From Candidatus Stahliibacteriota bacterium (GTDB lineage Bacteria; Hydrothermota; UBA3073), in assembly GCA_030627085.1 (NCBI GenBank), contig DAOUSS010000003.1, positions 1 through 37,261 of the forward strand: DNA of 37,261 nt. The letters are read 5' to 3'. Of this stretch, positions 1,772 through 33,016 are shown piece after piece (positions within the stretch are counted from its first letter, which is position 1; every line of letters begins with the position of its first letter). The position numbers and the translations under genes are program-made. The notes beneath the pieces were generated by a model. It ran no database searches. It saw only the letters and a program-made list of their open reading frames with translations, and had not been told where the DNA came from.

Positions 1772-1998
1772 ACCACAAAGTTCACAAAGGACACAAAGTT
1801 TAAAAAATAAATAGCTTCTCTTTGTGTGCTTTGTGGTTTAAATAAAAAGAAATAAGTCCTTCTGTATTGATTAAGTTTTACCACACCTGTCTACCGACAG
1901 GTAGAAAGTTCACAAAGAATAAGAGATTTATTTAAAAAGTCAACATAATTAATTTCTCTGAAAATTCAAAATCTTGGTGTTCTTCGTGCCTTTGTGGT
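1772..1998. repeat. Two gene-less inverted 9-mer array elements (ACCACAAAG...CTTTGTGGT)
   Basis: 1772-1837: accacaaag ttcacaaag gacacaaag ... ctttgtgtg ctttgtggt. 1880-1998: same ends, with a 20-nt insert at 1886-1905. Confidence 0.8.
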
Positions 1999-2013
1999 GA
2001 AAAAGGAGGTCAT

Positions 2014-2634
2014 ATGCAATTATTTCTGTTACCCTTAATATTCCTTGCATCGGAGATAAAACTCCCCAAAGTGGAAACAGGGGATATGTCTCTTGAGGAA
2101 GCAATAAAAAGAAGGAGATCGGTACGAAGTTATGAGAAAACTGAACTCACACTACAACAGCTCTCTCAACTCCTGTGGGCTTCACAGGGCATTACGGATT
2201 CTGTGAGGGGATTTCGTTCTGCTCCATCTGCAGGCGCCCTCTATCCCCTCAAGGTATATCTTATCAAAAAAGATGGTATCTTTGAATATATACCATCTTC
2301 ACATTCAATAGTAAAAAAGGTGGATGGTGATAAAAGAGGAGAACTTTGTAAGGCGGCGCTATGGCAAAGTTTTATAAAGGAGGCGCCTGTAAGTTTTGTC
2401 ATAACCGCCATATACGAACGCACAACTGTAAAATACAGGGAAAGGGGTATAAGGTATGTGCATATAGAGGTGGGCCACTCTGCCCAGAATATTCACCTTG
2501 AGGCAGTTGCTCTGGGGCTCGCATCCGTTCCTGTCGGTGCATTTAAGGACGACGAGGTAAAAAAGGTGCTTTTCCTTCCTCCCTCTGAAGAACCACTGTA
2601 TATAATCCCTGTGGGATATGCAAGGGGACAATGA
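2014..2634 (+). CDS. SagB/ThcOx-like nitroreductase-family FMN oxidoreductase
   Basis: Motifs RRRSVRSY, LSQLLWASQG, RSAPSAGALYP, EVGHSAQNIHL and PVGAF; RBS AAGGAGG upstream. Confidence 0.85.
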   Translation: MQLFLLPLIFLASEIKLPKVETGDMSLEEAIKRRRSVRSYEKTELTLQQLSQLLWASQGITDSVRGFRSAPSAGALYPLKVYLIKKDGIFEYIPSSHSIVKKVDGDKRGELCKAALWQSFIKEAPVSFVITAIYERTTVKYRERGIRYVHIEVGHSAQNIHLEAVALGLASVPVGAFKDDEVKKVLFLPPSEEPLYIIPVGYARGQ

Positions 2635-2647
2635 TGGATTTTTCCCC

Positions 2648-2676
2648 TTGACAGGTGGGAAAAAATGTAGTATAAT
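2648..2676 (+). promoter_or_regulatory. Consensus sigma70 promoter
   Basis: TTGACA (2648-2653), 17-nt spacer, TATAAT (2671-2676). Confidence 0.8.
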
Positions 2677-2684
2677 ATTATTGG

Positions 2685-2837
2685 ATGACGCGAAATTGCA
2701 ATCCACAGAGATCAGATTATAATGGTAGTTATTTCTATTTTCCAGCCCAACCCCATTCCACTAATTGGCTTGATTGGGCACCACCACCCGATAAGTTGAT
2801 CCTTAATCGGAAGGAGGGAGCCCCGCCAATTGAATAA
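2685..2837 (+). other. Candidate leaderless 50-aa ORF and/or structured small RNA
   Basis: ATG lies 8 nt after the -10 box. Translation: MTRNCNPQRSDYNGSYFYFPAQPHSTNWLDWAPPPDKLILNRKEGAPPIE. Nested stems at 2763-2831. Confidence 0.35.
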
Positions 2838-2929
2838 GTTTAGCATAAATATGATGTTATTGCGACATAAAAGTTAAAAAACAGGTTGAAATTTGACATT
2901 ACATATAAAAAGGTAGTGTCAAATAGAAT

Positions 2930-3384
2930 ATGAAAGAATATGACAAACCACACCTGCCTGCCGTCAGGCAGGGAGGTCACAGAGTAAATTTAATTCTCTG
3001 TGCTCTCCAAAAGAGTTTCCTCTGAAAGATATAACGGAAAAGATAATTGCATGTGCGATTGAGGTTCATTCAAACTTGGGTCCTGGATTATTGGAAAGCG
3101 TTTATGAAGAAGCATTGGCATATGAATTTGAGTTGAGGGGAATTAATTTTGAAAGACAAAAAGAGATTATGCTTGAATACAAGGGGAAGAGTATAGGTCC
3201 GCATCGGGTAGATTTTTTAATAGAAGGGCAAGTGATATTAGAGATAAAGGCAACAGAGGGAATGAAGAAGATATTTGAGGCACAGGTTTTAACATATATG
3301 AAAGCAATAAAGAAAAAAGTGGGACTACTTATAAATTTCAATGTAGAAAGGTTGAAAGACGGGATAAAAAGATTGGTCTTATAA
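2930..3384 (+). pseudogene. GxxExxY protein (PD-(D/E)XK nuclease-like fold), 5' end apparently frameshifted by a 20-nt insertion
   Basis: Motifs GPGLLESVYE, RVDFLIEGQVILEIKA, AQVLTY and GLLINF. The typical N-terminus (ITEKIIACAIEVH) lies upstream of the TTG at 3076 with no in-frame ATG. Deleting 2953-2972 joins ATG 2930 in frame. Confidence 0.7.
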
Positions 3385-3457
3385 GAGGTCACAGAGGGGA
3401 GGGAGAACAATCTTTTGTAATTCCTTAATACTGAACATTCTCTGTGTTCTCTGTGGT
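2947..3457. mobile_element. Inverted 9-mer array element enclosing the GxxExxY gene
   Basis: Left end accaca[insert]gag gtcacagag; right end ctctgtgtt ctctgtggt; same end type as the empty copies. Confidence 0.55.
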
Positions 3458-3497
3458 TAGATTTTTGACAATACTCTAATAGAGAATAGGAGGGGAT

Positions 3498-3848
3498 ATG
3501 AAGGACTTAAGTGAACTTCGGATATATAAGCTAGCCGTTGATGTAGGAGAGTTGGTCTGGGAAGGAGTACAGGAATGGGAGAATTTTGCAAAGTGGACAA
3601 TCGGTAAGCAAGTTGTGGAATCCGCTGATGGTATTTCAGCTACTATGATGGAAGGATACTATCGCAACCAACCTGGAGACAAAAGGAAATTCTTCCAATA
3701 TGCACTATCATCTGCGAAAGAGACCGAGCTATGGTGCTGGAAAGCAAAAAATCGCAAAATTATGCCTTTGGAAAGGTATTCAGAGATCAAACAGTTGATA
3801 GATGACCTCTTGCCTCAATTAGTCAATTTCATAAAATCGATCCACTGA
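3498..3848 (+). CDS. Four-helix-bundle protein (23S rRNA IVP / Avd-like family)
   Basis: 116 aa; motifs ELRIYKLA, KQVVESADGISATMMEGYYR and FFQYALSSAKE; RBS AGGAGG. Confidence 0.85.
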   Translation: MKDLSELRIYKLAVDVGELVWEGVQEWENFAKWTIGKQVVESADGISATMMEGYYRNQPGDKRKFFQYALSSAKETELWCWKAKNRKIMPLERYSEIKQLIDDLLPQLVNFIKSIH

Positions 3849-3850
3849 TA

Positions 3851-3892
3851 CACCATTCCCTATTAACCATTCGCCATTCACTATTCACTAAT
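3851..3892 (+). repeat. 7-mer tandem array downstream of the four-helix-bundle gene
   Basis: ccattcc ctattaa ccattcg ccattca ctattca ctaat; short complementary remnant aatagagaatagg at 3478-3490. Confidence 0.75.
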
Positions 3893-3940
3893 CTGCCTAC
3901 CTACCCGCCTGACGGCAGGCAGGTAAGGAATTGAAACGAG

Positions 3941-3968
3941 GTAGGGGCGTATTGCAATACGCCCCTAC
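3941..3968. repeat. GTAG-type REP, perfect 28-bp palindrome between convergent genes
   Basis: GTAGGGGCGTATTGCAATACGCCCCTAC. Confidence 0.9.
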
Positions 3969-4038
3969 AGTTTAGGTGATAGTTATCGTAAAGCGTGAGG
4001 TGTAAATAGTAAATTGGAGGGGGGTAAAGGAATGTAAA

Positions 4039-5439
4039 TTATCCCAGGTTCAAGATGTTTTTTATCTCATCTACGAGTTGGGATACTTTTACTCTCTTCT
4101 GTCCAACCCTTGCTTCAAGCCACTTCTTCCTGTCACCTATCTCTTTCTCTATCCTCTCTTTTGCCCGTAAATCCTTTATTGAAACAATATCTTCTTTAAA
4201 TTCATCCTCACCAATTATTAAAGCAATAGGTATATCTTTCTTATCCGCATACTTCAGTTGTTTTCCAATTCCTTCTTCCCCGAGATAGACCTCTGTATTT
4301 ATGCCGTTCTCCCTCAATTTAAAGGCAAGTTTATGATATTCAACGAGTTTATCTCTCACCATACAGGTAATGAGGACATCTATATTATTCTTCCTTCGTT
4401 TTACAAGTCCCAGTTTCTGCATTGCCAAAACAAGTCTGTCCACACCTATAGATGCGCCTGTAGCAGGTATATCTTTGTCCATAAACTGTCCAATAAGCCT
4501 ATCGTATCTGCCTCCGCCCATAATACTCCCATATCCGGGTGCGTCCAGAAGTATCGCCTCATACACAGGACCTGTATAATAATCCAATCCTCTTGCTACT
4601 ACGAAATCAATTACTACCTTATCTTCGTCAATACCAACACCCTCAAGGTATCTGTCTATCTCTCTTAACTCTTCTATTCCCTCACAGTCTCCAAGAAGTA
4701 AAGTAACTGAATCGAGAGCCTCTTTTTGAGCCGCCTGCGGGAGCATAATAAACTCTTTTATTTTATCAATCTGTTCTTTTTTTAGAAAAAGTCCCCTTAT
4801 CTCTGCACCCGATGCATCAACCCTGCCCTCTCCCAATTCAGCAAGAACAGCATCAAGACCCTGTTTGTCAAGTTTATCAATCACACGAAATACCGAATGT
4901 GAAAGGGATGGCTCTATGCCAGCAAATCTAATCACCTCTTCTAGTATTTTTCTGTTGTTTATCCTTATCTTGAACCTTGCCACTCCGAGTGCCTTTATGG
5001 ACTGATACATAGCAGCTATAATCTCTGCATCTGCTATCACAGAAGAGATTCCAACTGTGTCTATATCAAATTGTAGAAACTCCCTGAACCTCCCCTTGTC
5101 AGGTTTATCATACCTGAATACTTCCTGTATCTGGTATCTTCTGAATGGCATTTCAAGGTTTTTATATTGTGCTATAACACGAGAAAGAGGGGATGTGAGG
5201 TCATACCGCAACCCTATGCTAATCTCATCAGGGTCACGGAAGGTGTATATCTGTTTGTTTGCTTCCTCCCCATACCCTACAAGAATGTCCTTGTATTCAA
5301 GGGCAGGAGTTGCGAGTGGAGAGAATCCATAGGATTCATACACCCTCTTTATTGTGGATACTACCTCCTCACGGGCCACTATCTCATCTGAGAATATGTC
5401 CTTGAATCCCTTGAGTGTTCTGGGTTCTATCTTTTTCAT
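4039..5439 (-). CDS. hisS: Histidine--tRNA ligase
   Basis: Motifs LRYDLT, FRYDKPDKGRFREFLQFDID, RGLDYYTG and GGGRYD; C-terminal anticodon-binding domain (KQLKYADK). Confidence 0.97.
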   Translation of the reverse strand: MKKIEPRTLKGFKDIFSDEIVAREEVVSTIKRVYESYGFSPLATPALEYKDILVGYGEEANKQIYTFRDPDEISIGLRYDLTSPLSRVIAQYKNLEMPFRRYQIQEVFRYDKPDKGRFREFLQFDIDTVGISSVIADAEIIAAMYQSIKALGVARFKIRINNRKILEEVIRFAGIEPSLSHSVFRVIDKLDKQGLDAVLAELGEGRVDASGAEIRGLFLKKEQIDKIKEFIMLPQAAQKEALDSVTLLLGDCEGIEELREIDRYLEGVGIDEDKVVIDFVVARGLDYYTGPVYEAILLDAPGYGSIMGGGRYDRLIGQFMDKDIPATGASIGVDRLVLAMQKLGLVKRRKNNIDVLITCMVRDKLVEYHKLAFKLRENGINTEVYLGEEGIGKQLKYADKKDIPIALIIGEDEFKEDIVSIKDLRAKERIEKEIGDRKKWLEARVGQKRVKVSQLVDEIKNILNLG

Positions 5440-5514
5440 ATTAATTCACCAATTCCTATAGAGGAAGACTTATCAGGTTGTGCAAAAAGTCAAGATATAA
5501 TTTTGGAGAACTCT

Positions 5515-5537
5515 CGCAACTTAAAAGTTGCGGCTAC
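5515..5537 (-). repeat. GTAG-type REP
   Basis: Minus strand reads GTAGCCGCAACTTTTAAGTTGCG. Confidence 0.8.
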
Positions 5538-5667
5538 CAGATTAACGGGTAATCAAGGCTATGTGGTTCCTCCTACTTATACGAGTCTATAACGAAGGAT
5601 ATACAGCAGACTCTGGCTAAATCAAATTTTACATTTTGATGTTTGACTTTTGGTTTTTTCACAAGAT

Positions 5668-5696
5668 ATTATACACCAAAAAACCAGATATGTCAA
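5668..5696 (-). promoter_or_regulatory. Consensus sigma70 promoter facing hisS
   Basis: Minus strand: TTGACA (5696-5691), 17-nt spacer, TATAAT (5673-5668). Confidence 0.75.
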
Positions 5697-5711
5697 GAAA
5701 AAATTGGGCTC

Positions 5712-5895
5712 CCACAGAGAACACAAATAGGTTAAATATTAAAATGCAAAATTAAATTCCAAAATCCAAATGACAAACGGAGGTGGATGTTAGTCATTAG
5801 GCACTGGTCATTGGCCATTAGTCATTGGGCATTTTATTGGAAATTGGTAATTGGAAATTTGATATTATAATTGGCGTTCTTGGTGTCTTGGTGGT
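5712..5895. repeat. Nested inverted arrays: a 7-mer element inside a 9-mer element
   Basis: Order: ccacagagaacacaaa / aaattccaaaatccaaatgacaaa / gtcattggccattagtcattg...ttggaaattggtaattggaaattt / cttggtgtcttggtggt. Confidence 0.7.
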
Positions 5896-5922
5896 TATGA
5901 ATATAGAGGAGTATAAAAATAC

Positions 5923-5951
5923 TTGACATTTCCAAAATGGTATGATAAAAT
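5923..5951 (+). promoter_or_regulatory. sigma70 promoter with extended -10
   Basis: TTGACA (5923-5928), 17-nt spacer, TG-n-TAAAAT (5946-5951); ATG follows at 5962. Confidence 0.75.
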
Positions 5952-5961
5952 AATAGCACTT

Positions 5962-6489
5962 ATGAAAAATATACTTTTAACAGGCAGGCCTGGTATCGGA
6001 AAAACAACCCTCATTTTGAAAGTAGTGAAAACTCTAAATATTGACGCAAGGGGATTCTACACACGAGAGATAAGAAAGGGTAGTGCGCGGGTGGGATTTG
6101 AGATTGTGGAGATAGGCAAAGACAATGCTAAAAGAGAGAGATTTGCACATATCGATTTTGATAAAAGATACAGGGTAGGCAAGTACGGAGTGAATATATC
6201 TATACTCGATGAGATCGGTGTAGAGGCAATAAAAAAGGGCATTGAAGAGAAAAAACTGATAATTATAGATGAAATCGGAAGGATGGAGTTATATTCAAAA
6301 AGATTCCGGGAGATGGTTATCCTTGCTCTAAATTCGTCATCGCCCGTCTTGACAACCATCACTATGAGCCCTCTTCCATTCGTACAGGATATTAAGCAAA
6401 GAAAAGATGTGACTATTTTAGAGATAACAAGAGACAACAGGAATAAGCTTTCAGATGAGATTATCACAAACTTTCAAGCCCTTCCATAA
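5962..6489 (+). CDS. THEP1/NTPase_1-family nucleoside triphosphatase
   Basis: Walker A GRPGIGKT; motifs GFYTREIR, RVGKYGVN and IIIDEIGRME. Start moved to ATG 5962 because the TTG at 5923 is the -35 box. Confidence 0.9.
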   Translation: MKNILLTGRPGIGKTTLILKVVKTLNIDARGFYTREIRKGSARVGFEIVEIGKDNAKRERFAHIDFDKRYRVGKYGVNISILDEIGVEAIKKGIEEKKLIIIDEIGRMELYSKRFREMVILALNSSSPVLTTITMSPLPFVQDIKQRKDVTILEITRDNRNKLSDEIITNFQALP

Positions 6490-7970: not shown

Positions 7971-7977
7971 ATAATTA

Positions 7978-8098
7978 AGTCGTTGAGTCATCGGGTCGTT
8001 GAGTCATTGGGTCATTGAGTCATTGGGTCGTTGGGTCCACAGGACGCTAAGACCCTACGACGCTAAGACGCTATGACGCTAAGACGCTATGACGCTAT
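7978..8098. repeat. Gene-less inverted 8-mer array element
   Basis: About 7 x GTCRTTGR, a 5-nt spacer, then 7 x GACGCTAN; ATTA on both sides (7974-7977 and 8097-8100). Confidence 0.9.
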
Positions 8099-9647: not shown

Positions 9648-9654
9648 AATATTA

Positions 9655-10158
9655 AGTCTTAGAGTCTTGGAGTCATAGAGTCTTAGCGTCGTAGAGTCAT
9701 GGAAAACTTAAATATGTCGTTTGAGGGATCTGTTAAGATATTTAATCATACCGGAACCGAGTTGTGAAACTTTTTCTGCTTGATTATAGACGGCCTCTTT
9801 TTCGTCCTTTGTCAAGTATTTTTGGTCTAATGCTGCGTAACAAAGACTTTGAACTTCCGCTGCCGACCCCTTAGAAATCCATAAACCTCTCAAAAATTCT
9901 TTATCTGTCTCTCTTGCAAACCCCTCGGCTATATTGGACATTGAAGAAACAGCTGCTGATGAAAACTGGCCAGAAAACCTCAAGTCTGTGGAAAGAGCGA
10001 GATTTGCCCTTATTGCATCGTAAACCATTTTTACCAATTTCCGAGCCTCTTTCCAGCACTCCAAGTCCTCAAATCTCTCAATTTTCATAAAACCTCCATA
10101 ACACAATGACACTACAACTCAAAGACGCAACGACACTATGACTCTATGACGCAATGAC
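9655..10158. mobile_element. Inverted 8-mer array element enclosing a four-helix-bundle gene
   Basis: Left arm GTCTTAGA GTCTTGGA GTCATAGA GTCTTAGC GTCGTAGA; right arm GACGCAAC GACACTAT GACTCTAT GACGCAAT GAC. Confidence 0.65.
9708..10088 (-). CDS. Four-helix-bundle protein (23S rRNA IVP / Avd-like family)
   Basis: Motifs MKIERFEDLECWKEAR, SSMSNIAEGFAR and ISKGSAAEVQS; RBS GGAGG before ATG 10088. Confidence 0.92.
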   Translation of the reverse strand: MKIERFEDLECWKEARKLVKMVYDAIRANLALSTDLRFSGQFSSAAVSSMSNIAEGFARETDKEFLRGLWISKGSAAEVQSLCYAALDQKYLTKDEKEAVYNQAEKVSQLGSGMIKYLNRSLKRHI

Positions 10159-13674: not shown

Positions 13675-13688
13675 TTCCCCTCCTATAC

Positions 13689-13748
13689 ATTAGGTCATTT
13701 GGTCATTAAGTCATTAGGTCATTAAGCACGATTTGAAATCGTGCCTAC
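13689..13748. repeat. 8-mer array arm plus GTAG-type REP
   Basis: (ATTAGGTC-like) x4, then GCACGATTTGAAATCGTGCCTAC. Confidence 0.8.
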
Positions 13749-13749
13749 A

Positions 13750-14949: not shown

Positions 14950-14967
14950 ATAATCCCCTTGTAAAAA

Positions 14968-15070
14968 ACCAAATCAAAATTATCAATTAGCAATTAACAT
15001 TTCAAAATTATTTCCCGCATTGCCTTTATCTTCCTCCATTGCTAATTGCTAATTTTACATTTTGAATTTT
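14968..15070. repeat. Gene-less inverted 7-mer array element
   Basis: caattag caattaa catttca ... ttgctaa ttgctaa ttttaca ttttgaa. Confidence 0.7.
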
Positions 15071-15074
15071 CAAA

Positions 15075-15881: not shown

Positions 15882-15884
15882 AAT

Positions 15885-16802: not shown

Positions 16803-16807
16803 CTGCG

Positions 16808-16878
16808 GGTTAGTTGGTAATTAGGGCATTAGGTGATTGGGCTATTGAGGTCATTGCACGATTAAAAATCGTGCCTAC
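16808..16878. repeat. Degenerate 8-mer arm plus GTAG-type REP
   Basis: ggtaatta gggcatta ggtgattg ggctattg; GCACGATTAAAAATCGTGCCTAC. Confidence 0.7.
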
Positions 16879-16943
16879 ATCTACAAGACAATAATTCCTG
16901 CAAGCGTAAGTTGAATTCGTGTCTATACTGATATTCCGAGTTC

Positions 16944-17009: not shown

Positions 17010-17069
17010 TCAGTCTACAATCTCTGCTTTCTCTCTGTTCTCTGTGGTTAAAATTTACAAGGAGGAAGG

Positions 17070-19703
17070 GTGAGAAAATCTTTTCTTCTCTTTATACTTT
17101 TTCCTGTTGTATACCTCTTTGCAGGAACAACTGGAAAGATTACAGGGAGGGTAGTAGACCTGACAACTGGTGAACTCCTCCCTTTTGTTAATGTGGTCGT
17201 TGAGGGCACAAATCTTGGAGCTGCCACTGATATTGATGGGTATTATTTTATTCTAAATGTACCCCCGGGTGAGTATACGCTGTCTGCATCTATGATCGGT
17301 TACAATCGTATGAGAGTTGAGGGTGTCAGGGTGTCCTTTGATTTCACCAGCGTTTGCAACTTTGAGCTCACCCCGACCATTTTGGAGGGGGAAGAGATTG
17401 TGGTGGTTGCCGAACGAGAGATAATAAGACCTGACCTTACATCGAGCCTCGCCGTCGTCGGGGCCGACGATATCGAGACGATGCCCGTACAGAACTTCAG
17501 GGATGTATTAAATCTTCAAGCGGGCATCGTCAAGGGACATATAAGGGGTGGGAGGTCTGGAGAGGTTGCCTATCTCATAGATGGAATCTCCGTCACTGAC
17601 GCATATTCGGGTGACATAGCAGTGGAGGTGGATAACTCTGCTATACAGGAACTTCAGGTCGTGAGTGGTACATTCAATGCAGAATACGGTCAGGCAATGT
17701 CTGGTATAGTAAATATTGTGACGAAAGAGGGCAGCAGAAAGTACTCTGGTCAGGTATCATCATGGATCGGAGACTATCTCACAGCAGATGAAAATTTTAC
17801 AGGATTGAATAAGCTAAATATACTCCAGAATAAGAATCTGCAGAGTACCATCTCAGGCCCGCTTCCCTTCTTAAAGAAAAGAGGGTCGTTCTTTGTCACT
17901 ACAAGATATTACTACAGTGACGGATGGCTTTATGGAAAGAGAGAGTTTACGCCACAGGGAGAACCTGGTGACGATAAGGTAGTGCCTATGAATTTTTACA
18001 ATAAGATCTTTGCACAGGGAAAGTTATCCCTCCAGCTGAAAGAAAATATTGAGTTAAATTATTCATACTTTACAGATCATGCGAAATATAAGACATATGA
18101 CCACTATTTTAAGTATAATCCTGATGGAGACTTCAATAGATCTAAGTCAGGATATAACCATCAATTAACCTTCACCCATATGATAAGCCCAAAGACATTT
18201 TACACCCTGAATGCGGCAAGGTTTTACTCTGAATATAAACATTATGTATATGAAGACCCCTATGACCCAAGGTATGTTCATCCCGACCTTCTCACAGCAC
18301 CTGCGTACTCCTTTGCACAAGGAGGAACAAAAATGCAGAATTTCACAAGATGGAGTAAAACCACTGCGGGAAAGCTTGACATTACATCCCAAATTGGGTC
18401 GTCAAACGAGGTAAAAGGAGGCATAGAAACAAGGTTTCACAATCTATTCCTCCATGAATTTGATATAGTGCCAAAGCGCACTGAGACTGGAGAGATTGTG
18501 CCGTTTGAACCTGATATACCCGATATTACAGCTCCAAACCATAATAGATATAACAAAAAACCATACGAGTTGTCCTGTTACCTGCAGGATAAAATAGAAC
18601 TGAAGGATATGATAGTCAATCTTGGCATAAGGTATGACTACTTTGAACCCAATGGTGTTGTGCTTGCCGACCCATCCGACCCGAACATAAACGATCCCTG
18701 GAAGCCTGAACACAAGGATATGACACTTGAGGAAAGGGAAGAGATATGGTGGAAGAAGGCATCATCAAAAACCCAAATAAGCCCAAGATTTGGAGTGGCG
18801 TACCCTATTACAGACAGGGGTGTTATACACTTCTCATATGGTCACTTCCTTCAAATCCCTCCATTTGAATATCTCTATAAAAATCCGGAGTTCGAGGTGC
18901 CAAAAACCTCAGGCATAAGCACGATTTTGGGTAACACAGATCTCGATGCACAGCGCACTGTTATGTATGAAATAGGCCTACAGCAGGCATTTACCGATGA
19001 TATTGCAACTGATGTAACACTCTTCTATCGTGATATAAGAAACTGGGTAGGAACCTCTCCGGAGATAAACACAGTAATACCGGGAACAAAGTATGTCAAG
19101 TATATAAATAAGGACTATGCAAATGTAAGGGGAATAACATTCTCCCTTGACAAGTACCGAATAGATAAATTTGGAGTAAGTCTTGATTATACATACCAGA
19201 TAGCCGAAGGCACATCCTCAAATCCCGACGATGCATTCAATGACGCAAGAGCGGGAAGAGAGCCAAGAAAAGAGGTAATTCCTTTAAACTGGGATCAGAG
19301 CCATACCTTCAACCTCTCAATTCTCTTTGGAAACGCAGGACTTATATTCAGATACGGTTCTGGACTTCCATACACACCGTGGATCGTCCAGGGAACACGA
19401 GTTGGACGGACCCTTGCCACTGGATTGAAAGAAAACAGTGAACGCCGACCAACTACAATCACTGCTGATTTTAACTACAGCTATGATATAAAGATAGGAA
19501 AGTCCACAGTTTCGTTCATTATAAGAATTCTGAACATCTTTGATACCAGAAATGAAGAGGGAGTATTTACAGATACAGGAAGAGCAACTTACACATTAGA
19601 GGAACGTATAGCAGGTGCAGACGCCTCGCCCGAATGGTTCATACGACCCGATTTTTATTCAGAGCCAAGACAGATACAGGTGGGGATGTCGGTAAGGTTC
19701 TAA
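17070..19703 (+). CDS. TonB-dependent receptor with N-terminal carboxypeptidase-regulatory-like domain
   Basis: Signal peptide; GTTGKITGRV...GAATDIDGYY; plug motifs HIRGGR and GTFNAEYGQAMSGIVNIVTK; SPRFGVAYP; C-terminal Phe; RBS AAGGAGG. Confidence 0.92.
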   Translation: MRKSFLLFILFPVVYLFAGTTGKITGRVVDLTTGELLPFVNVVVEGTNLGAATDIDGYYFILNVPPGEYTLSASMIGYNRMRVEGVRVSFDFTSVCNFELTPTILEGEEIVVVAEREIIRPDLTSSLAVVGADDIETMPVQNFRDVLNLQAGIVKGHIRGGRSGEVAYLIDGISVTDAYSGDIAVEVDNSAIQELQVVSGTFNAEYGQAMSGIVNIVTKEGSRKYSGQVSSWIGDYLTADENFTGLNKLNILQNKNLQSTISGPLPFLKKRGSFFVTTRYYYSDGWLYGKREFTPQGEPGDDKVVPMNFYNKIFAQGKLSLQLKENIELNYSYFTDHAKYKTYDHYFKYNPDGDFNRSKSGYNHQLTFTHMISPKTFYTLNAARFYSEYKHYVYEDPYDPRYVHPDLLTAPAYSFAQGGTKMQNFTRWSKTTAGKLDITSQIGSSNEVKGGIETRFHNLFLHEFDIVPKRTETGEIVPFEPDIPDITAPNHNRYNKKPYELSCYLQDKIELKDMIVNLGIRYDYFEPNGVVLADPSDPNINDPWKPEHKDMTLEEREEIWWKKASSKTQISPRFGVAYPITDRGVIHFSYGHFLQIPPFEYLYKNPEFEVPKTSGISTILGNTDLDAQRTVMYEIGLQQAFTDDIATDVTLFYRDIRNWVGTSPEINTVIPGTKYVKYINKDYANVRGITFSLDKYRIDKFGVSLDYTYQIAEGTSSNPDDAFNDARAGREPRKEVIPLNWDQSHTFNLSILFGNAGLIFRYGSGLPYTPWIVQGTRVGRTLATGLKENSERRPTTITADFNYSYDIKIGKSTVSFIIRILNIFDTRNEEGVFTDTGRATYTLEERIAGADASPEWFIRPDFYSEPRQIQVGMSVRF

Positions 19704-19705
19704 AC

Positions 19706-19792
19706 ATAGTTGAATAGTTAATTAGTTGATTAGTTAATTAGTTGATTAGTTGAATGATTGTTTTGGAAATGCTAACAAACTTACCAACTAAA
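19706..19792. repeat. Inverted 8-mer array element (TAGTTRAT type)
   Basis: tagttgaa tagttaat tagttgat tagttaat tagttgat tagttgaa ... aacaaact taccaact aaac. Confidence 0.75.
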
Positions 19793-19807
19793 CACATTGG
19801 GGGGAAG

Positions 19808-23107: not shown

Positions 23108-23130
23108 AACTATGCATGGATGAACACAAC

Positions 23131-23342
23131 AAAATTTCAAAATCCGAATTTCTAATTTCCAATGAAAATCCAAATGCCATAACACAGATTACACAGATAA
23201 AAACATAGATAACACTGATTTATTTCACAATCTGTGTAATCCAATCAAATCTGTGCCATCTGTGTTTTGGAAATTTAGACATTCTCCAATAATCTCGTGT
23301 AATCTTGTGGTTTCAAAATTTTTGCATTTTGATATTTGATTT
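23131..23342. repeat. Nested 7-mer and 9-mer inverted arrays
   Basis: 7-mer arm 23131-23178; aacacagat tacacagat...atctgtgcc atctgtgtt at 23181-23266; 7-mer complementary arm; cttgtggtt; tttgcattttgatatttgattt. Confidence 0.7.
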
Positions 23343-23359
23343 AACTTTTTGGGGGTGCT

Positions 23360-24364: not shown

Positions 24365-24450
24365 TACTCGTATTTTTACAATCACGATCTTTTTATAAGT
24401 ATATACAAACTTATCGTAGATAACCACTGGCTTGTCTTAACAGAACCCTT

Positions 24451-24611
24451 GCAGGCACAAATTCAATTTGTGCCTGCACGATTTGAATTCGTGCCTATAT
24501 TCACCGTGTGAAGAATAAGATTCAGATTGTTATTATTTCGTTTTTTTTCCTATTAATGTAAGGCAAACCTTTAGGTTTGCTTACATATGCAAGGCTGACG
24601 CCTTGCCCTAC
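24451..24611. repeat. Cluster of four REP palindromes
   Basis: GCAGGCACAAATTCAATTTGTGCCTGC; GCACGATTTGAATTCGTGCC; GTAAGGCAAACCTTTAGGTTTGCTTAC; GCAAGGCTGACGCCTTGCCCTAC. Confidence 0.85.
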
Positions 24612-24683
24612 AATATTGGTGTAGACTAACTGATATCCTGTCTCTCATGCGGGGTGCTTAGATAGTGAGATTTTATTTTTTTC

Positions 24684-24712
24684 TTGACAAAATGATGTTT
24701 TTGTGATATATT
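24684..24712 (+). promoter_or_regulatory. sigma70 promoter with extended -10
   Basis: TTGACA (24684-24689), 17-nt spacer, TG-n-TATATT (24707-24712). Confidence 0.7.
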
Positions 24713-24780
24713 ATACAGTAGGATAAATATGAAGGGAGGTAATGCGAAAAGAGAATAGATAAATGATAGGTCTAATTGAC

Positions 24781-25022
24781 AGAGTTCTAATAGGGCTTCA
24801 CAAAACTAAAGGTCATTGAAATCTGCGGTGTTATGGAATTCCTTGCGAGACAACGGATTACGATAGCACTCATTTCTAGGGAACTTGGCTGAATTTTGCT
24901 TCAAATTCATAACGCATTGATACGCAAGGACTTACAAGGTGGAGGTGAAATCAAAAAGCAGGCTGCTTGTAATCCTATAAATAGCAAGGGATTACGAATT
25001 TTGTGAAAGGCAAGAGTTCTAA
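24781..25022. mobile_element. MITE-like element with 10-bp flanking direct repeat
   Basis: AGAGTTCTAA at 24781-24790 and 25013-25022; imperfect terminal inverted repeats with core TTCACAAAA/TTTTGTGAA; no ORF. Confidence 0.7.
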
Positions 25023-25119
25023 AGAAAGGAGGTGGTAGAGATAAATTGGGGGTTATAACCCAGCGTTGTGTTCAGCGTTTTTGTTGCAGTAGTTATTAGT
25101 TATATAGAAAGGAGGTTGT

Positions 25120-27192: not shown

Positions 27193-27225
27193 TCGTTCTC
27201 TATGATTGGAACTGAAATTGTTAAA

Positions 27226-27257
27226 GCAGAAGGGGGAGTATATACTCCCCCTTCTGC
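27226..27257. terminator. Perfect 32-bp palindrome (terminator-like or mRNA-stabilising hairpin)
   Basis: GCAGAAGGGGGAGTA-TA-TACTCCCCCTTCTGC, 33 nt after the stop codon; no U-tract on the + strand. Confidence 0.55.
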
Positions 27258-27273
27258 GTAAAATACGCATAAT

Positions 27274-27372
27274 GTGGGGCAAACCTTCAGGTTTGCTTAC
27301 AAACGCAAGGCTAAAGCCTTGCCCTACACTTTCAAACAAACGCAAGGCTAAAGCCTTGCCCTACACTTTCAA
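27274..27372. repeat. REP cluster with exact 37-bp tandem duplication
   Basis: GTGGGGCAAACCTTCAGGTTTGC, then 2 x ACAAACGCAAGGCTAAAGCCTTGCCCTACACTTTCAA. Confidence 0.9.
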
Positions 27373-27381
27373 GAAGATAAA

Positions 27382-30300
27382 ATGAAAAATTTCCTGTTTA
27401 TTATTATACTTTTTGCCCTTCCCCTGCTTTCTCAGAATCAGGCGTGGTGGGAACCGGAGAATCCCTCTCCGGGAGATTCTGTAACAATATATTATAACAC
27501 AAGACTGGGAACACTGCCTGAGAATAGTGACTGGATAAAGCTCCACTGGGGCGTAAATGGATGGACACTTCCTTCAGAGAGTCTGTGGCCACCGAATACT
27601 ACCCCATGGGAAGATAGCTGTGCCGTTGAATCCCCTATGATACCGGAAGACGACACAATATGGACCATACCACTCACAACTAACGAGATCGTTGAAACAA
27701 TAGATTTTTGCTTTCATGGTAATACTGATTGGGATAACAACTCCGGAGCAGATTGGCATATATATTTAGGTGAACTCCCAGCGATAATCCCCGTAAGATT
27801 TATTCTGGATACCCGTAGCTGTAATTTTTCATATACAGGCTCATCTATAACCGGGGTAAACCTCGCAGGCTCATTCAACGGATGGTCCACTACCGCAATG
27901 CCTATGACACAGACGGAGAACCCATATATATGGGAGAGATGGGTTGATCTTTATGAAGGAACGTACGAATATAAATTTGTGATAAATGGCCATGTATGGG
28001 TCCCTGACCCCGACAATCCACGCTACACAGGTGAATTCCAGAATGCAGTTGTTATAGTGAAAAAGGATATATGCCCAAAGATAGATATTGAATCTCCACG
28101 ATGTGGGTCTGTATTTTATGATACCACATCTATAGATGTAATAGCAATTGTGAAAAAGGGAGATGATGGAATACCGATAGACGAATCATCTATTATAGTA
28201 ATAATCGACAACGATTCCCTATCTTACCTCTTTGACCCTGACAGTCTTATCATCACAGCAAATGCATCTGGACTCTCATACGGCCTTCATCTAATTTCTG
28301 TATCTTTATCGGATACGGCAGGCAATGCTACAGAGAAAACATCCTCCTTCGGAATATACCCATCAGGGAGCGGATATCATGCCATTGACGCATTCTATGA
28401 TGAAAACTACTTATACCCGGATTATGTTGCAGATGGCACATGCGATATAAAGGATCTTAACATAAAAAAGAATGCCGATTCACTTAAATTCACAGTTTTC
28501 ATCAGAAATCTTTCAGAGTATACGAAACTCGCTATGCAGATATCAACTATGGATGTAGCACCTATGGTTGAAACTTCACTCCCATTGGAAATAAAAACAA
28601 GGGAATGGAATGGCAGTGGTGTCTTCCTTACAGTTATAGATCCATCTTCACCATCTTTTAATCCTTCTTTTGATAACAGAATCTATATTCAAAGGTATCC
28701 ACCAGCGCTGGGTGACTCTATAGATGTAACTGTATCAGGTGATAGCCTTATCTTTAATATCTCTGTCTCACTCCTTGAGAGTATTCTCGGCAGTTACAAT
28801 GTTCCCTGGTATTTTTACCTATTCTCATTCATTCCTGATTTTGAGCCCGACTCATCTGTTGCTGGGAACGACCTTATTATAGACCCTGATATATACGATG
28901 CAGTCTTTTTTGAAACTAAAGACCTTGAAGATAAACTCCTTGCAAATTACATACCTGATGGGTCTTTGGGTGGTCCAAGAATGGCATCACTTGATGGCGT
29001 TGGAAGGGGTATTGGAAAGATAGAGGCATACGATATAGACAGCTCGCTCTTCAACCCAGGTCCTGTTGTAAGACTTCTGACCCGTAGCGGGGTTGTATAT
29101 GACTCTATATACCCAGTTGACGGAACAATAAGTGATGCTGATATAAATGAGGCAATTCTCACCATAAATGGGATAGACACAACAATATCCGTATCTTCAG
29201 GATTTTTCTCCGTCCCGATAAGGCTTGTAGAAGGTGATAATATAATATCATGCAGGGCAGAAAATAACGAAGGAGTTGGCTCTTCTCCGTCAATAAATCT
29301 TGAACTTTTTGTAGACCATACGCCAAAGGCAGTCATTGATACGGTGTATCTTGAGAGCAATAATATCTATGTCAATGGAAGTACAAGTTATGACCCTGAT
29401 GGCAATGAACTTACATATCTCTGGTTTCAAGATAGCCTTAATCCGCAGGAGATAATATTCAGCATCCCAAATTCTGCGATAACATCCTTTTCGGTACCAT
29501 CTGTGAATGGAGAATACTACTTTAATCTTATGGTGGAAGACCCTGACGGAAATCGGGATTTTGCCAGAAGTTTCATAACCGTGAGAGATGGGGATGTAAG
29601 CATCGCAGGAACAGATAGTATCGCAGATTGGATAAGAAATGCGATTGTCTATGAGATCTTTCTGCAGTCGTTCAGTGATAAAGGGAATTTTAGGGGGGTG
29701 AGTGAAAAAATCTCCCAAATTAAGGACCTCGGGGTAAACTGCATCTGGTTTATGCCGATAAATCCAAGCACATATACAAATGGCTACTCTGTCACAGACT
29801 ATTATGGCATAAGGACGGATTACGGCACAGAGGAAGATCTCAAGGAACTACTTACGCTTTGCACGGAAAATGGTATAAAAGTAATAATTGACCATGTCGT
29901 AAATCACTGCTCAAATCAACATCCCTGGATGGTAGATGCACAGTGTTTTGGAGAATATTCCCACTTCTATAATAATTTTATGTGGGATGCAGGCGGAAAT
30001 TACCATTACACGGCAGGTGCCGATTTGCCTGATTTGAACTATGGTAATGAACATCTAAAGGAATATCTTCTTGATATGGCAGAATACTGGCTCACCGAAT
30101 TTGACATATACGGGTTCAGGTGTGATATGGCGTGGGCAGTGGAGCAAAGAGACAATACATACTGGAGGCTATGGAGGAAGAGGCTTAAATCCAAAAAGCC
30201 CGAGGTGTTTTTGCTTGCAGAGGCGACTTCAACAGATTTTACATATTTTCAGTCAAGATTTGATGCAGCCTATGATTGGAACCTTCATCACGAGTCACCT

Positions 30301-31233
30301 GCCAGTTTTGCGAAAATATTTGACGGTGGTGTAACTGGTGAAGATATAAATACGCTTCATAACACCATAGTAAACTATGGATATTCATTCCCAAAGGATA
30401 GATTCCCTCTGAGATTTTTAGAAAATCATGATGAGACAAGATATATAGCGTATCATACACCCGAACAGACCAAACTTATGGCAGCCTTGCTTCTCACAAT
30501 TCCGGGTATTCCACTCATATATTCTGGACAGGAAGTTGGAGAGCTCACCCTTAGAGATAGAATTGACTGGAGTGACCCTAATAACCTGAGACCGTATTAT
30601 AAAAAACTCTGCTGGATAAGGAATAACTTCTCTTCTATAAGAGAACCGAATATTACACGCATCAATGCATCGTCGCAAACAGTGTACTCTTTTTATAGAA
30701 AAAACAGTGAGAATACAGTGATATGTGGTTTTAACTTTTCCCCTGGTGGAAACACAGGCCCATTATCCATACCTATTGATTCACTTGGAATAGAGCCTGA
30801 CTCGACATACTATATGAATGATGTATTGAGTAACAAGTATAAGCAAGTTTCGGGTTCCGAGCTTTCGAGTTTTGTTGTTAATTTCCCTGGATACGGGGCA
30901 AAGATATGGGTGCTCGCGGATTCAATAATAACAGGTGTTGAGAAATCCCCTGTCTATATAAATAAACTCTGTCAAAACTATCCAAATCCATTTAAGGGAA
31001 CTACAGATATTAGATTCCAGATTTCAGATTTTAGTAAAGTCTCGCTAAAGGTATATGATGTATCTGGAAGACTGGTAAGGACACTTATAGATGGAAAGCT
31101 TGAGGCAGGTTCTCACAGTGTAAGATGGAATGGAAGAGACGATAGAGGAAGAAAGGTGGGGAAAGGTATCTATTTCTGTAGACTTACTATCGGTGAGTTT
31201 AGAGACACACAGAAGATGGTGCTTTTGAGGTAG
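27382..31233 (+). CDS. Secreted multimodular GH13 alpha-amylase-family enzyme with starch-binding modules and T9SS-type CTD
   Basis: Signal peptide; LHWGVNGW...WDNNSGADW (CBM25/53-like); LAGSFNGW...YEYKFVING (CBM48-like); SYDPDG PKD-like segment; GH13 motifs DHVVNH, GFRCDMA, LLAE and FLENHD; QNYPNPF CTD. Confidence 0.88.
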   Translation: MKNFLFIIILFALPLLSQNQAWWEPENPSPGDSVTIYYNTRLGTLPENSDWIKLHWGVNGWTLPSESLWPPNTTPWEDSCAVESPMIPEDDTIWTIPLTTNEIVETIDFCFHGNTDWDNNSGADWHIYLGELPAIIPVRFILDTRSCNFSYTGSSITGVNLAGSFNGWSTTAMPMTQTENPYIWERWVDLYEGTYEYKFVINGHVWVPDPDNPRYTGEFQNAVVIVKKDICPKIDIESPRCGSVFYDTTSIDVIAIVKKGDDGIPIDESSIIVIIDNDSLSYLFDPDSLIITANASGLSYGLHLISVSLSDTAGNATEKTSSFGIYPSGSGYHAIDAFYDENYLYPDYVADGTCDIKDLNIKKNADSLKFTVFIRNLSEYTKLAMQISTMDVAPMVETSLPLEIKTREWNGSGVFLTVIDPSSPSFNPSFDNRIYIQRYPPALGDSIDVTVSGDSLIFNISVSLLESILGSYNVPWYFYLFSFIPDFEPDSSVAGNDLIIDPDIYDAVFFETKDLEDKLLANYIPDGSLGGPRMASLDGVGRGIGKIEAYDIDSSLFNPGPVVRLLTRSGVVYDSIYPVDGTISDADINEAILTINGIDTTISVSSGFFSVPIRLVEGDNIISCRAENNEGVGSSPSINLELFVDHTPKAVIDTVYLESNNIYVNGSTSYDPDGNELTYLWFQDSLNPQEIIFSIPNSAITSFSVPSVNGEYYFNLMVEDPDGNRDFARSFITVRDGDVSIAGTDSIADWIRNAIVYEIFLQSFSDKGNFRGVSEKISQIKDLGVNCIWFMPINPSTYTNGYSVTDYYGIRTDYGTEEDLKELLTLCTENGIKVIIDHVVNHCSNQHPWMVDAQCFGEYSHFYNNFMWDAGGNYHYTAGADLPDLNYGNEHLKEYLLDMAEYWLTEFDIYGFRCDMAWAVEQRDNTYWRLWRKRLKSKKPEVFLLAEATSTDFTYFQSRFDAAYDWNLHHESPASFAKIFDGGVTGEDINTLHNTIVNYGYSFPKDRFPLRFLENHDETRYIAYHTPEQTKLMAALLLTIPGIPLIYSGQEVGELTLRDRIDWSDPNNLRPYYKKLCWIRNNFSSIREPNITRINASSQTVYSFYRKNSENTVICGFNFSPGGNTGPLSIPIDSLGIEPDSTYYMNDVLSNKYKQVSGSELSSFVVNFPGYGAKIWVLADSIITGVEKSPVYINKLCQNYPNPFKGTTDIRFQISDFSKVSLKVYDVSGRLVRTLIDGKLEAGSHSVRWNGRDDRGRKVGKGIYFCRLTIGEFRDTQKMVLLR

Positions 31234-31239
31234 CTGATT

Positions 31240-31262
31240 GCACGATTTGAAATCGTGCCTAC
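31240..31262 (-). repeat. GTAG-type REP between convergent genes
   Basis: GCACGATTTGAAATCGTGCCTAC. Confidence 0.9.
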
Positions 31263-31267
31263 ATTAC

Positions 31268-32275
31268 CTATACTGCTACTGCTTTCTCGCTGTATCCGAG
31301 TGAGAATGCCATAATTATTGCATTACACTCACACTTCTTATAACAGAGCGCACACCCTATACACTTTGAAAGGTCAACCTTGTGTTGCTCTCCTTTTTCT
31401 CCTGTTATTGCATCAGTAGGACATACTGATTTACATTCCTCACATCCAGTACAGTTTGTCCCAATCATTGCCCTTGGTCTTGATGCTGCCTTATCTACTA
31501 TGCACTTTGTCGGACATTTTAAAATACATATTGTCGCATTTTCGCATACAGCAGGGTCTATCCTTGCTAAGTTGTTTTCTACCTTTATCGCACCATAAGG
31601 ACAGTTCTTCTCACAGAGTTTGCAAGCAATACACCCTGCACTACATACCTTCTTCACCAAAGGCGCTTTTAATCTTGAATTACAGGCAACATATACCTTT
31701 TGTGTTTTGGGAATAAGCTCAAGAACATCTCTGGGACACTCTTTAACGCATAATCCACATCCTGTGCACTTATCATCCGCTATGAGAGGTAGTCCATCGT
31801 CTCCCATTTTAATTGCATCAAACGGACATACCCTTTCACAGTTCCCATACCCAAGACAGCCATACTCACATCCCTTATTCCCTTTCTGTATCAGGTCTGC
31901 AGCAACGCAATCCATAAGACCGTCATAAATAAATCTCTCCTTTGCTTTGTTCTTATCTCCTCCACACCGTAACACTACAACCATTGGTTCAATCTCTGAT
32001 GGTGCAACACCGAGTATCTCGGAAATTTTTTTATCAATCTCTTCCCCGCCAACAGGACAGAATCCTGCACTCTTGCCAGATTTGGCGAGGGCAGCGGCAA
32101 ACGCCTCGCATCCAGGATACCCACAGCTACCACAGTTCGTACCTGGCAGTATCTGAATAAGGTTTCTTTCGATTTCTGAATGTGTTACTGCAAGTTTCGT
32201 ATAGGCAAATGTAAGACCCAGCCCTAATATAAGTCCAAGTCCTCCAAGCACCACAACCGCTGTCATTACTGTCAT
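31268..32275 (-). CDS. rnfB: Rnf electron transport complex subunit B (long polyferredoxin form)
   Basis: N-terminal TM helix; LPGTNCGSCGYPGC; CPVGG; GCLGYGNCERVCPFDAI; several CxxCxxCxxxC motifs. Start set at ATG 32275 after GGGGG. Confidence 0.9.
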   Translation of the reverse strand: MTVMTAVVVLGGLGLILGLGLTFAYTKLAVTHSEIERNLIQILPGTNCGSCGYPGCEAFAAALAKSGKSAGFCPVGGEEIDKKISEILGVAPSEIEPMVVVLRCGGDKNKAKERFIYDGLMDCVAADLIQKGNKGCEYGCLGYGNCERVCPFDAIKMGDDGLPLIADDKCTGCGLCVKECPRDVLELIPKTQKVYVACNSRLKAPLVKKVCSAGCIACKLCEKNCPYGAIKVENNLARIDPAVCENATICILKCPTKCIVDKAASRPRAMIGTNCTGCEECKSVCPTDAITGEKGEQHKVDLSKCIGCALCYKKCECNAIIMAFSLGYSEKAVAV

Positions 32276-32327
32276 AAAACCCCCTGCAATAGAGTTAGAT
32301 TTTGTAAAAACTGATACATCGAAGGTT

Positions 32328-32381
32328 GTAGGCACAAATTGAATTTGTGCTGTTATTTGCACGGTTTGAAACCGTGCCTAC
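32328..32381. repeat. Convergent REP doublet
   Basis: GTAGGCACAAATTGAATTTGTGC ... GCACGGTTTGAAACCGTGCCTAC. Confidence 0.9.
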
Positions 32382-32403
32382 AAGTTGTCCGTGAAGCAAG
32401 TTT

Positions 32404-32679
32404 CTAATCACAGATACAGGGTGTCTTACTACACTTCGGGCATCCATTCTCGTATTTTCTTATAGCGTCTTCCATACTCACATCCACTATATTCGCTATA
32501 GAGAAAAGCCAGGCAGTACAGTCAGCCAGTTCCTCCTCAAAATTCTGTTCATTTCTTATTGCCCTTGCGAGTTCACCTACTTCCTCAACAAACCAGGTAA
32601 ATGTTCCTTCAATCCCCCTGTCTGCATCTTTCCTTAAGTATATCTCTTTTATCTTCTTCTGAAATTCGTCTATGGTCAT
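32404..32679 (-). CDS. MazG-like nucleotide pyrophosphohydrolase
   Basis: WFVEEVGELARA, EEELAD; C-terminal CPKCSKTPCIC. Confidence 0.88.
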   Translation of the reverse strand: MTIDEFQKKIKEIYLRKDADRGIEGTFTWFVEEVGELARAIRNEQNFEEELADCTAWLFSIANIVDVSMEDAIRKYENGCPKCSKTPCICD

Positions 32680-32718
32680 CTTCTATCCTTTCGCAAGATA
32701 AAGTATTGTCAAAAATCT

Positions 32719-33016
32719 AACCACAGAGAGCACAGAGAATTACAGAGTAATAAAGAATCGCAGAAGATTTTCATCTCTCTCCTCTGTGACCTCTCTCTAA
32801 GACCAATTTCTTTGTCCCATTTTTTTAAACCACAAAGAACACAAAGTGTCTTTAACACGAAGTGTCTCTAACCCAGAAGTAGCAGAACCCATTGAGAAAG
32901 AATCTAAAATTTGAAAAATCTCCCTGTGTTCTCTTGGAATCTCTGTGAACTCTGTGGTTAAAAAGTAGGCACGATTTCAAATCGTGCAAATTGGCACAAA
33001 TTGAATTTGTGCCTAC
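32719..33016. repeat. 9-mer inverted arrays followed by a REP doublet
   Basis: accacagag agcacagag; accacaaag aacacaaag; ctctgtgaa ctctgtggtt; GTAGGCACGATTTCAAATCGTGC...GCACAAATTGAATTTGTGCCTAC. Confidence 0.8.

Follow-up and report, generated by a model that had tools for sequence, protein, structure and literature searches.

Two kinds of tiny cassette that look alike probably coexist (probability about 0.6) in a 37,261-nucleotide stretch of DNA, here called the window, from a Candidatus Stahliibacteriota bacterium (contig DAOUSS010000003.1 of assembly GCA_030627085.1, positions 1 to 37,261 of the forward strand): DNA transposable elements that carry a gene for a GxxExxY nuclease, and elements resembling the intervening sequences (IVS) of 23S rRNA, which comprise cassettes with a four-helix-bundle (4HB) gene and empty hairpins of 7- or 8-nucleotide units. 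In a 1.93-Mb metagenome-assembled genome (MAG) of 347 contigs, referred to below as the own genome (G000), the window constitutes contig C318, and the best relatives of its proteins are found in candidate division WOR-3. An earlier sequence-only reading had proposed several parallel families built to one plan, in which inverted arrays of short tandem units enclose a small gene or nothing at all, and this proposal holds: every array that it listed is present at its coordinates to within a few bases, and Pfam and NCBIfam profiles identify its three cargo genes as one GxxExxY nuclease (PF13366) and two 4HB genes (PF05635).

The GxxExxY element of the window exists as had been proposed, but not with the ends 2947 and 3457 assigned to it; its 9-mer arms are subterminal, and the true ends are at 2912 and 3474/3475. 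A BLAST search of the own genome with positions 2860-3520 detected about 50 loci that share the ends of 2912-3475 and a single full copy of the gene, the shared part spanning 2912 (GGTAGTGTCAAA) to 3474/5 (TTTGACAATACT). The element is bounded by 12-bp terminal inverted repeats (TIRs), GGTAGTGTCAAA ... TTTGACAATACY, outside the 9-mer arms, and inside the TIRs are subterminal arrays of 9-nt units with the core CACAGAG. Its parts are as follows.

2912-3475, plus strand: full-length putative GxxExxY transposable element, with TIRs at 2912-2923 (left) and 3464-3474 (right, plus T 3475)
2947-2952 and 2973-2984, plus strand: outer-left arm, split by a nested hairpin at 2953-2972
2994-3008 (left) and 3385-3396 (right), plus strand: inner arms
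3025-3384, plus strand: GxxExxY / PDDEXK_3 nuclease gene, with the nuclease domain at 3025-3375 and the stop codon at 3382-3384
3440-3458, plus strand: outer-right arm

The 12-mer of the left TIR occurs 6-27 times per genome in eight genomes of family f1, to which the own genome belongs. Its number is 0-1 in five genomes outside this family, and for the reversed control it is likewise 0-1. Complete copies range from 133 bp (gene-less) to 601 bp, some of them enclosing other small nested elements; the gene-less copies, which resemble MITEs (miniature inverted-repeat transposable elements), measure 133-473 bp.

Target site duplications (TSDs) were measured by comparing the 8 nt before the left TIR with the 8 nt after the right TIR in 20 complete copies, including two from Calditrichia. 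The match was 8/8 in nine copies, 7/8 in four (at least 7/8 in 13/20) and at most 4/8 in seven, whereas mismatched partners gave 8/8 in 0/380 pairs and 7/8 in 3/380. Two of the perfect cases are from Calditrichia, another phylum. In 17 of 26 own-genome copies, the right end is followed after 23-25 nt by a co-directional start codon that has a Shine-Dalgarno site of the GGAGG type, and therefore the duplicated 8-mer is a few bases 5′ of that site. The right end is within 60 nt of a co-directional start in 24/26 copies versus 111/400 random positions, left ends never face a divergent start (0/11), and a purine-rich run resembling a Shine-Dalgarno site (mostly GGAGG) is found 11-19 nt past the right end in 9/9 flanks of relatives. 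These positions suggest that the element inserts immediately 5′ of the Shine-Dalgarno site of a host gene and in the orientation of that gene, so that the nuclease gene would become the first cistron of the host transcript and the host gene would retain its own ribosome-binding site. A promoter in the right TIR was considered and rejected: TTGACA is present, but there is no -10 box at a consistent 17-bp spacing in the flanks inspected.

Alternatively, all of the cassettes, GxxExxY included, could be purely RNA-level inserts like IVS, spread by recombination, with arms that serve only to form a stem cleaved by RNase III. This alternative is improbable. It can appeal to an architecture shared with S23p-type IVS, which are excised by RNase III according to the accessible part of PMC4990558, to a mild excess of G-U over A-C mismatches, and to the orientation of the cargo genes, which are co-directional with both neighbors (upstream in 82/89 cases and downstream in 77/94 for GxxExxY; 47/52 and 43/52 for 4HB). 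It is weakened for the window's GxxExxY family by features that point to insertion of DNA: defined TIRs flanked by 8-bp TSDs, a fixed insertion distance from start codons and dozens of dispersed ends that are nearly identical.

The arms of GxxExxY cassettes also have a core sequence of their own, C[AG]C[AGT][AG]A[GT], read inward from either end, which occurs at least twice in both arms of 51/109 GxxExxY cassettes versus 0/67 4HB cassettes. When arm-motif labels were placed on a tree of 59 GxxExxY proteins, they required 23 changes versus a mean of 35.9 for shuffled labels, and 0/200 shuffles were as low. Well-supported clades with a single motif contain mixed phyla: the CGAAT clade consists of Chloroflexota and Poribacteria, the CGAAG clade of Planctomycetota, Bacteroidota and Bacillota, and the window's copy clusters with Lentisphaerota in the protein tree. 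Whole units of gene plus arms are found in WOR-3, Zixibacteria, Lentisphaerae, Nitrospirota, Myxococcota and Calditrichia, the proteins being 66-97% identical. Because the labels follow the protein clade across phyla, the GxxExxY gene and its arms travel and change together. The arms of 4HB cassettes have a different sequence at every locus, and orthologous 4HB cassettes of one genus have differing heptamers. In two relatives (L149 and L156), the place of the GxxExxY gene is taken by a different nested element, which has arms of its own made of approximately 10-nt units of the AATCTCTT/ACAGGGAT type; arms of this type also flank the GxxExxY genes L020 and L021.

Tandem arrays were identified throughout the own genome with Tandem Repeats Finder (TRF; score of at least 40) and compared with a dinucleotide shuffle in 500-bp blocks, giving 246 arrays in the genome versus 0 in the shuffle for period 7, 143 versus 1 for period 8, 49 versus 2 for period 9 and 36 versus 2 for period 10. 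The majority of the arrays are gene-less, because the genome contains only 9 matches to PF13366 and 14 to PF05635. A search for ungapped inverted partners, which is too strict for imperfect arms, placed 81/889 TRF arrays above the 99% null. The relationship of unit length to cargo was determined for 183 cassettes from the own genome, 30 genomes of the same phylum and many other phyla, taking the best period in 120 nt on each side and the 99th percentile of shuffled flanks as the threshold. Weak or partial hits in relatives (L022-L025), own-genome fragments (C20:25443, C339 and C86) and repeated G000 rows were excluded. The periods were distributed as follows.

GxxExxY arms, n = 112: period 6, 0; period 7, 1; period 8, 23; period 9, 36; period 10, 12; period 11, 1; no call, 39
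4HB arms, n = 71: period 6, 2; period 7, 45; period 8, 10; period 9, 3; period 10, 0; period 11, 0; no call, 11

Counts for period 7 versus periods of at least 9 are 1 versus 49 for GxxExxY and 45 versus 3 for 4HB (Fisher p = 5e-23). Forty further PF13366 hits from 30 diverse genomes, about 11 of which repeat earlier loci, yielded 13 cases of period 9, eight of period 8, seven of period 10, 12 without a period and none of period 7. The association between period and cargo is real, but it is a tendency and not a rule: the pairing of 9-mers with GxxExxY and of 7- and 8-mers with 4HB genes, as first proposed, has to accommodate a period of 8 that is common to both cargoes (23 GxxExxY and 10 4HB), three 4HB cassettes with 9-mers and one GxxExxY cassette with 7-mers. 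Because 7- and 8-mers are the general background of the own genome, the departure from background lies with the GxxExxY arms.

It is very improbable that the arrays are slippage-prone microsatellites or regulatory repeats located near cargo genes by chance. A significant flank array does accompany 107 of 400 random long open reading frames (ORFs) of the own genome (27%; 51 of period 7, 35 of period 8 and 12 of period 9), but complementary flanks (stem score of at least 14) were found for only 11/400 random long ORFs versus 71/110 GxxExxY and 42/69 4HB cassettes. Inverted arms are thus not equally common around random genes (11/400 versus 64-65% of cargo genes), and chance is contradicted by both the shuffle and the random-ORF controls and by the co-inheritance of arms and gene across phyla.

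The sequence-only reading also supposed that each family may be mobilized or templated by its cognate small protein. Extended to every family, 4HB included, with the footprint of the protein setting the unit length, this explanation is unlikely. The period is strongly dependent on cargo and the GxxExxY arm motif tracks the protein clade, as it would predict, but for 4HB it is without support: 4HB arms have no common motif, no duplications were found, the heptamers of orthologous 4HB cassettes differ within one genus, period 8 is shared, 9-mers occur in 4HB cassettes, and the 7/8-mer arrays are a genome background numbering hundreds versus 14 4HB matches. For GxxExxY, mobilization by the cognate protein is plausible in view of the arm motif that follows the clade, the TIRs, the TSDs, the gene-less derivatives and the lack of another transposase that matches the ends.

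The 4HB cassettes and the gene-less arrays of 7- and 8-mers in the window are listed below, with the strand where one is assigned.

3476-3892, plus strand: 4HB cassette, with a left arm reduced to only about two units at 3476-3489, the gene at 3498-3848 and a right 7-mer arm at 3851-3892
7979-8097: gene-less 8-mer hairpin, with left GTCATTGR units, an imperfect complement on the right and a 5-nt loop
9648-10158, minus strand: 4HB cassette, with 8-mer arms at 9655-9703 and 10104-10158 and the gene at 9708-10112
13688-13724: single 8-mer array of the GGTCATTA type
14968-15070: empty 7-mer hairpin element
16808-16850: single 8-mer array of the GTCATT type
19707-19753: 8-mer array of six units

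The two 4HB genes, at 3498-3848 and at 9708-10112 on the minus strand, match PF05635 (23S_rRNA_IVP) with 58.3 and 88.5 bits (cut-off 33.8) and TIGR02436 with 61.2 and 81 bits (cut-off 24). The arrays are diverse, 284 heptamer arrays representing 92 unit types and 164 octamer arrays 48 unit types. The hairpin at 7979-8097 occupies the whole spacer between two co-directional genes; at this site, between the genes at 7991/8079, the hairpin is missing from G005, G003 contains an empty 10-mer element of the GxxExxY type, G002 has an 8-mer hairpin together with a remnant of the G003-type 10-mer element, and the window has the 8-mer hairpin alone. The site of the second 4HB cassette (9647/10159) has other content in G005 and gene-less 8-mer arms with nested hairpins in G003. 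The array at 19707 has six units in the window and four in G003, a difference of exactly two units, and the array at 13688-13724 differs in unit number in G002 and G003, which are of the same genus, and is absent from G005. The 4HB cassettes and the hundreds of empty 7/8-mer hairpins change by gaining and losing whole units while both arms stay complementary, and the stem would most likely form a hairpin in the transcript that allows the insert to sit harmlessly between co-transcribed genes. Stop triplets in 4HB arms number 231 inward versus 136 outward, and all three frames are closed in 26/83 arms inward versus 11/83 outward; the excess is suggestive of translational insulation, but it was given no weight because arms that belong to one cassette are not independent of each other. 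One 4HB cassette of the own genome (G000:C56:628-942, with orthologues L031 and L037) is directly 5′ of a gene starting MYTILVYDMNEKRV, which we take to be cas2, and the heptamer at this locus differs between genomes.

Among known systems, the ORF-bearing IVS of 23S rRNA remain the closest to the 4HB cassettes and the empty 7/8-mer hairpins, judging by the accessible part of PMC4990558, where the S23p-type IVS of Coxiella is a small selfish insert with a PF05635 ORF between inverted repeats, gene-less versions and a history of horizontal acquisition. The likeness extends to the stem-forming inverted repeats, at the frequencies given above. The differences are that IVS are inserts in helix 25 or 45 of the rRNA, whereas all copies studied here are located between protein-coding ORFs and no rRNA was found in the window; that the arms here consist of tandem units of 7 or 8 nt; and that the window's GxxExxY family adds TIRs and TSDs, which are not described for IVS. 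The IVS of Leptospira presumably follows the same S23p-type plan. The short tandemly repeated repetitive (STRR) sequences of cyanobacteria, which we take to be intergenic tandem heptamers with some GTCATTG-like units as here, belong to another phylum, and differ from the present arrays in that the latter are paired as inverted arms that sometimes enclose a gene.

The GxxExxY protein matches PF13366 (PDDEXK_3) with 144.2 bits (cut-off 22) and TIGR04256 (GxxExxY) with 148.1 bits (cut-off 35). Residues G21, E24, Y27, D63, E73 and K75 do not vary among 13 sequences, and among 59 they are invariant or at least 90% conserved. An AlphaFold2 model (predicted local distance difference test score, 96.7) has a PD-(D/E)XK fold nearest to lambda exonuclease, Cas4 and RecE, with template modeling scores of about 0.5; no TnsA chain is among the fold-search matches listed, and a sequence search of solved structures returned only an insignificant match, T7 endonuclease I (E = 0.72). 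The dN/dS ratio is 0.03-0.04 in comparisons with the copies in G003, G005 and a Zixibacteria MAG; the 120-amino acid (aa) nuclease is under strong purifying selection. In the accessible part of a survey of the PD-(D/E)XK superfamily, PDDEXK_3 is entered as "Unknown ... multiple transfers" (PMC3424549).

Several observations weigh against the proposed division into two kinds of cassette or against parts of it. Six of eight own-genome copies, including that of the window (3/8), have no TSD, which may be due to age, to recombination between copies or to assembly joins across repeats in the 347-contig MAG. A generic scan for TIRs with TSDs found no excess over a shifted control in 107 cassettes of other GxxExxY families and 66 4HB cassettes, the sole 4HB case being L187 (9/9); therefore, the transposon reading is limited to the window's GxxExxY family. 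In the window lineage, the nuclease domain is not preceded by any in-frame ATG, GTG or TTG, and translation of the gene may start at CTG or involve a frameshift. The skew of G-U versus A-C mismatches on the sense strand, an indirect test of an RNA role of the stems, is only mild (63 versus 48 for 4HB, 97 versus 82 for GxxExxY). The wide GxxExxY sample was chosen by resemblance to the window protein and includes at least three duplicates (L027 = L061, L009 = L062 and L070, which is nearly the same as L073). Lastly, the action of the nuclease as mover of its element is something that we infer: PD-(D/E)XK enzymes are, to our knowledge, not known for strand transfer, and 8-bp duplications are typical of DDE transposases.

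In the own genome, cargo genes and element ends are often located at contig ends (e.g., C2, C71, C134, C343, C156 and C160); the GxxExxY and 4HB repeats appear to break the assembly, and repeat flanks in this MAG may be mis-joined. An ATG at 2940 is out of frame with the nuclease gene of the window lineage; sister copies have an in-frame ATG just upstream of the first arm unit, and therefore their arms are translated.

The GxxExxY elements could instead be non-autonomous and MITE-like, mobilized in trans by a DDE transposase that is not linked to them, for example of the IS1595 family, with the nuclease as a passenger that aids persistence in some other way. The IS1595 family is among those that typically make 8-bp duplications. 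IS1595-type PF12762 genes are present in the own genome and 4/5 other f1 genomes versus 0/3 genomes of other families, and, among the IS1595-type copies, only that of G001 has TIRs (26 bp) that include TTTGACACTA, which is complementary to the 10-mer at the cassette's terminus. In G001, however, this 10-mer is inverted with respect to the end, the TIRs of the own-genome IS1595 copy are unrelated to those of the cassette, and PF12762 was not found in 2/5 cassette genomes of other phyla, including the Calditrichia genome with a perfect 8-bp duplication. IS6-type PF13610 was matched in just 2/9 genomes, the match in G002 being a partial frame of 118 aa and that in G003 an open frame of 430 aa, and the gene and TIRs remain together across phyla. 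Full copies contain the GxxExxY gene only and no transposase of a known family. In the own genome, a transposase is never found between two cassette TIRs, and no partner with matching ends was detected by searches for IS6 (PF13610) and IS1595 (PF12762) transposases and scans for TIR pairs, ISL3, IS256, IS66 and other families not having been searched. The absence of a partner insertion sequence (IS) is weak evidence, because MAGs often lack IS copies. Movement by such a transposase is accordingly doubtful, although it deserves serious consideration.

The GxxExxY elements resemble bacterial MITEs and their parent IS in having TIRs, a fixed 8-bp duplication, many short gene-less copies with rare longer ones, and intergenic locations. 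They differ in that the longer copies encode the 120-aa PD-(D/E)XK nuclease and no known transposase, the elements insert in a single orientation and at a constant distance upstream of start codons, and the subterminal tandem arrays form hairpins. They share a PD-(D/E)XK nuclease encoded by mobile DNA with Tn7 (TnsA), with Rpn/YhgA-like proteins and with homing endonucleases. TnsA works with the DDE protein TnsB, whereas the GxxExxY element is without such a partner. The accessible part of PMC3424549 lists TnsA as a transposase and PDDEXK_2 and YhgA-like proteins as putative transposases. The element's own nuclease is tentatively favored over a trans-acting DDE enzyme as the mover. The nuclease would be the mobility enzyme of the element and would bind the repeated core motif, and it may be because of this binding that the motif accompanies the protein clade across phyla, together with its spacing of 8-11 nt, which is about one helical turn. 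At its boldest, the proposal is that the 120-aa nuclease alone is the transposition enzyme of a new minimal class of transposons of about 550 bp, recognizing tandem CAC(A/G)(A/G)A(G/T) units near the ends and directing insertion into the 8 bp immediately 5′ of Shine-Dalgarno sites so as to ride as a leader cistron, with clades that have their own motifs across most bacterial phyla; this is conceivable but rather unlikely.

The remaining elements of the GxxExxY type in the window are gene-less.

1772-1837, no strand assigned: empty GxxExxY-type element with three CACAAAG 9-mers, a 19-nt loop and two inverted units; ends ACCAC...GTGGT
1880-1998, no strand assigned: empty GxxExxY-type element with CACAAAG 9-mers, the first unit split by a nested hairpin of about 20 nt at 1886-1904
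5712-5895, no strand assigned: composite empty element with degenerate 9-mer outer arms and 7-mer arrays nested within, at 5738-5860
17021-17052, plus strand: right-end half copy of a GxxExxY-type element, with CTCTGT units ending GTGGTT
23181-23266, no strand assigned: empty GxxExxY-type element of the CACAGAT variety
32699-32959, minus strand: composite of gene-less GxxExxY-type elements, of which 32699-32824 is 82% identical to 3355-3478

The half copy at 17021-17052 is about 20 nt upstream of a GTG start at 17070 and is absent from the same site in G003; on the minus strand, the right end of 32699-32824 is 23 nt before the start of a MazG-like gene (32404-32679). GC-rich hairpins of about 20 nt (CCTGCCTGCCGTCAGGCAGG type) are inserted at exact points within arm units, e.g., between ACCACA and GAGG, and are found at 2953-2972, 1886-1904 and 3895-3923 of the window and at loci L030, L149, L156 and L157, while other small hairpins (TTCACCCCGTTAGAT... 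type) are located within GGTCA/CAGAG, the slash marking the point of insertion; both types are very small mobile inserts that target arms. An IS1595-family element at L264 (G001:C1; 1308-2337 in locus coordinates) is about 910 bp long and has perfect 26-bp TIRs and an adjacent extra solo TIR that forms a 146-bp hairpin.

Three other features of the window are of note. A palindrome, GCACGAWTTNAAATCGTGCCTACA, similar to repetitive extragenic palindromic sequences, follows many genes (13727-13749, 16851-16875, 24460-24510, 31238-31262, 32363-32385, 32965-33025 and 35965-36000) and constitutes a separate dispersed repeat family, perhaps of terminators. At 27299-27372, a 37-bp hairpin unit (GCAAGGCTAAAGCCTTGCCCTACA type) is duplicated exactly and in tandem, with a related copy 2.7 kb upstream at 24560-24620. 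The 755 bp at 24365-25119 contain no long ORF or Rfam match and a promoter-like TTGACA...TATATT, and could represent an RNA or leader that lacks annotation.

No description of these cassettes was found in the accessible parts of the literature, the supplements of which may hold relevant tables. What is new is the quantitative association of period with cargo, the conserved core of the arms, which tracks the protein clade, and, for one GxxExxY family, the TIRs, the 8-bp duplications, the MITE-like offspring and the fixed insertion site upstream of ribosome-binding sites. Few small "hypothetical" genes of uncultured bacteria are as common as those for GxxExxY (PDDEXK_3) and 4HB proteins, which have no assigned function; the properties of the GxxExxY element offer a concrete biochemical role that can be tested. 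The elements account for many contig breaks of MAGs at these repeats, and in annotation they add leader cistrons and hairpins to 5′ untranslated regions and arm-encoded peptide tails to predicted proteins. Should the nuclease be sufficient to move the element by itself, it would represent a novel, very small type of transposase that has a useful target preference built in.

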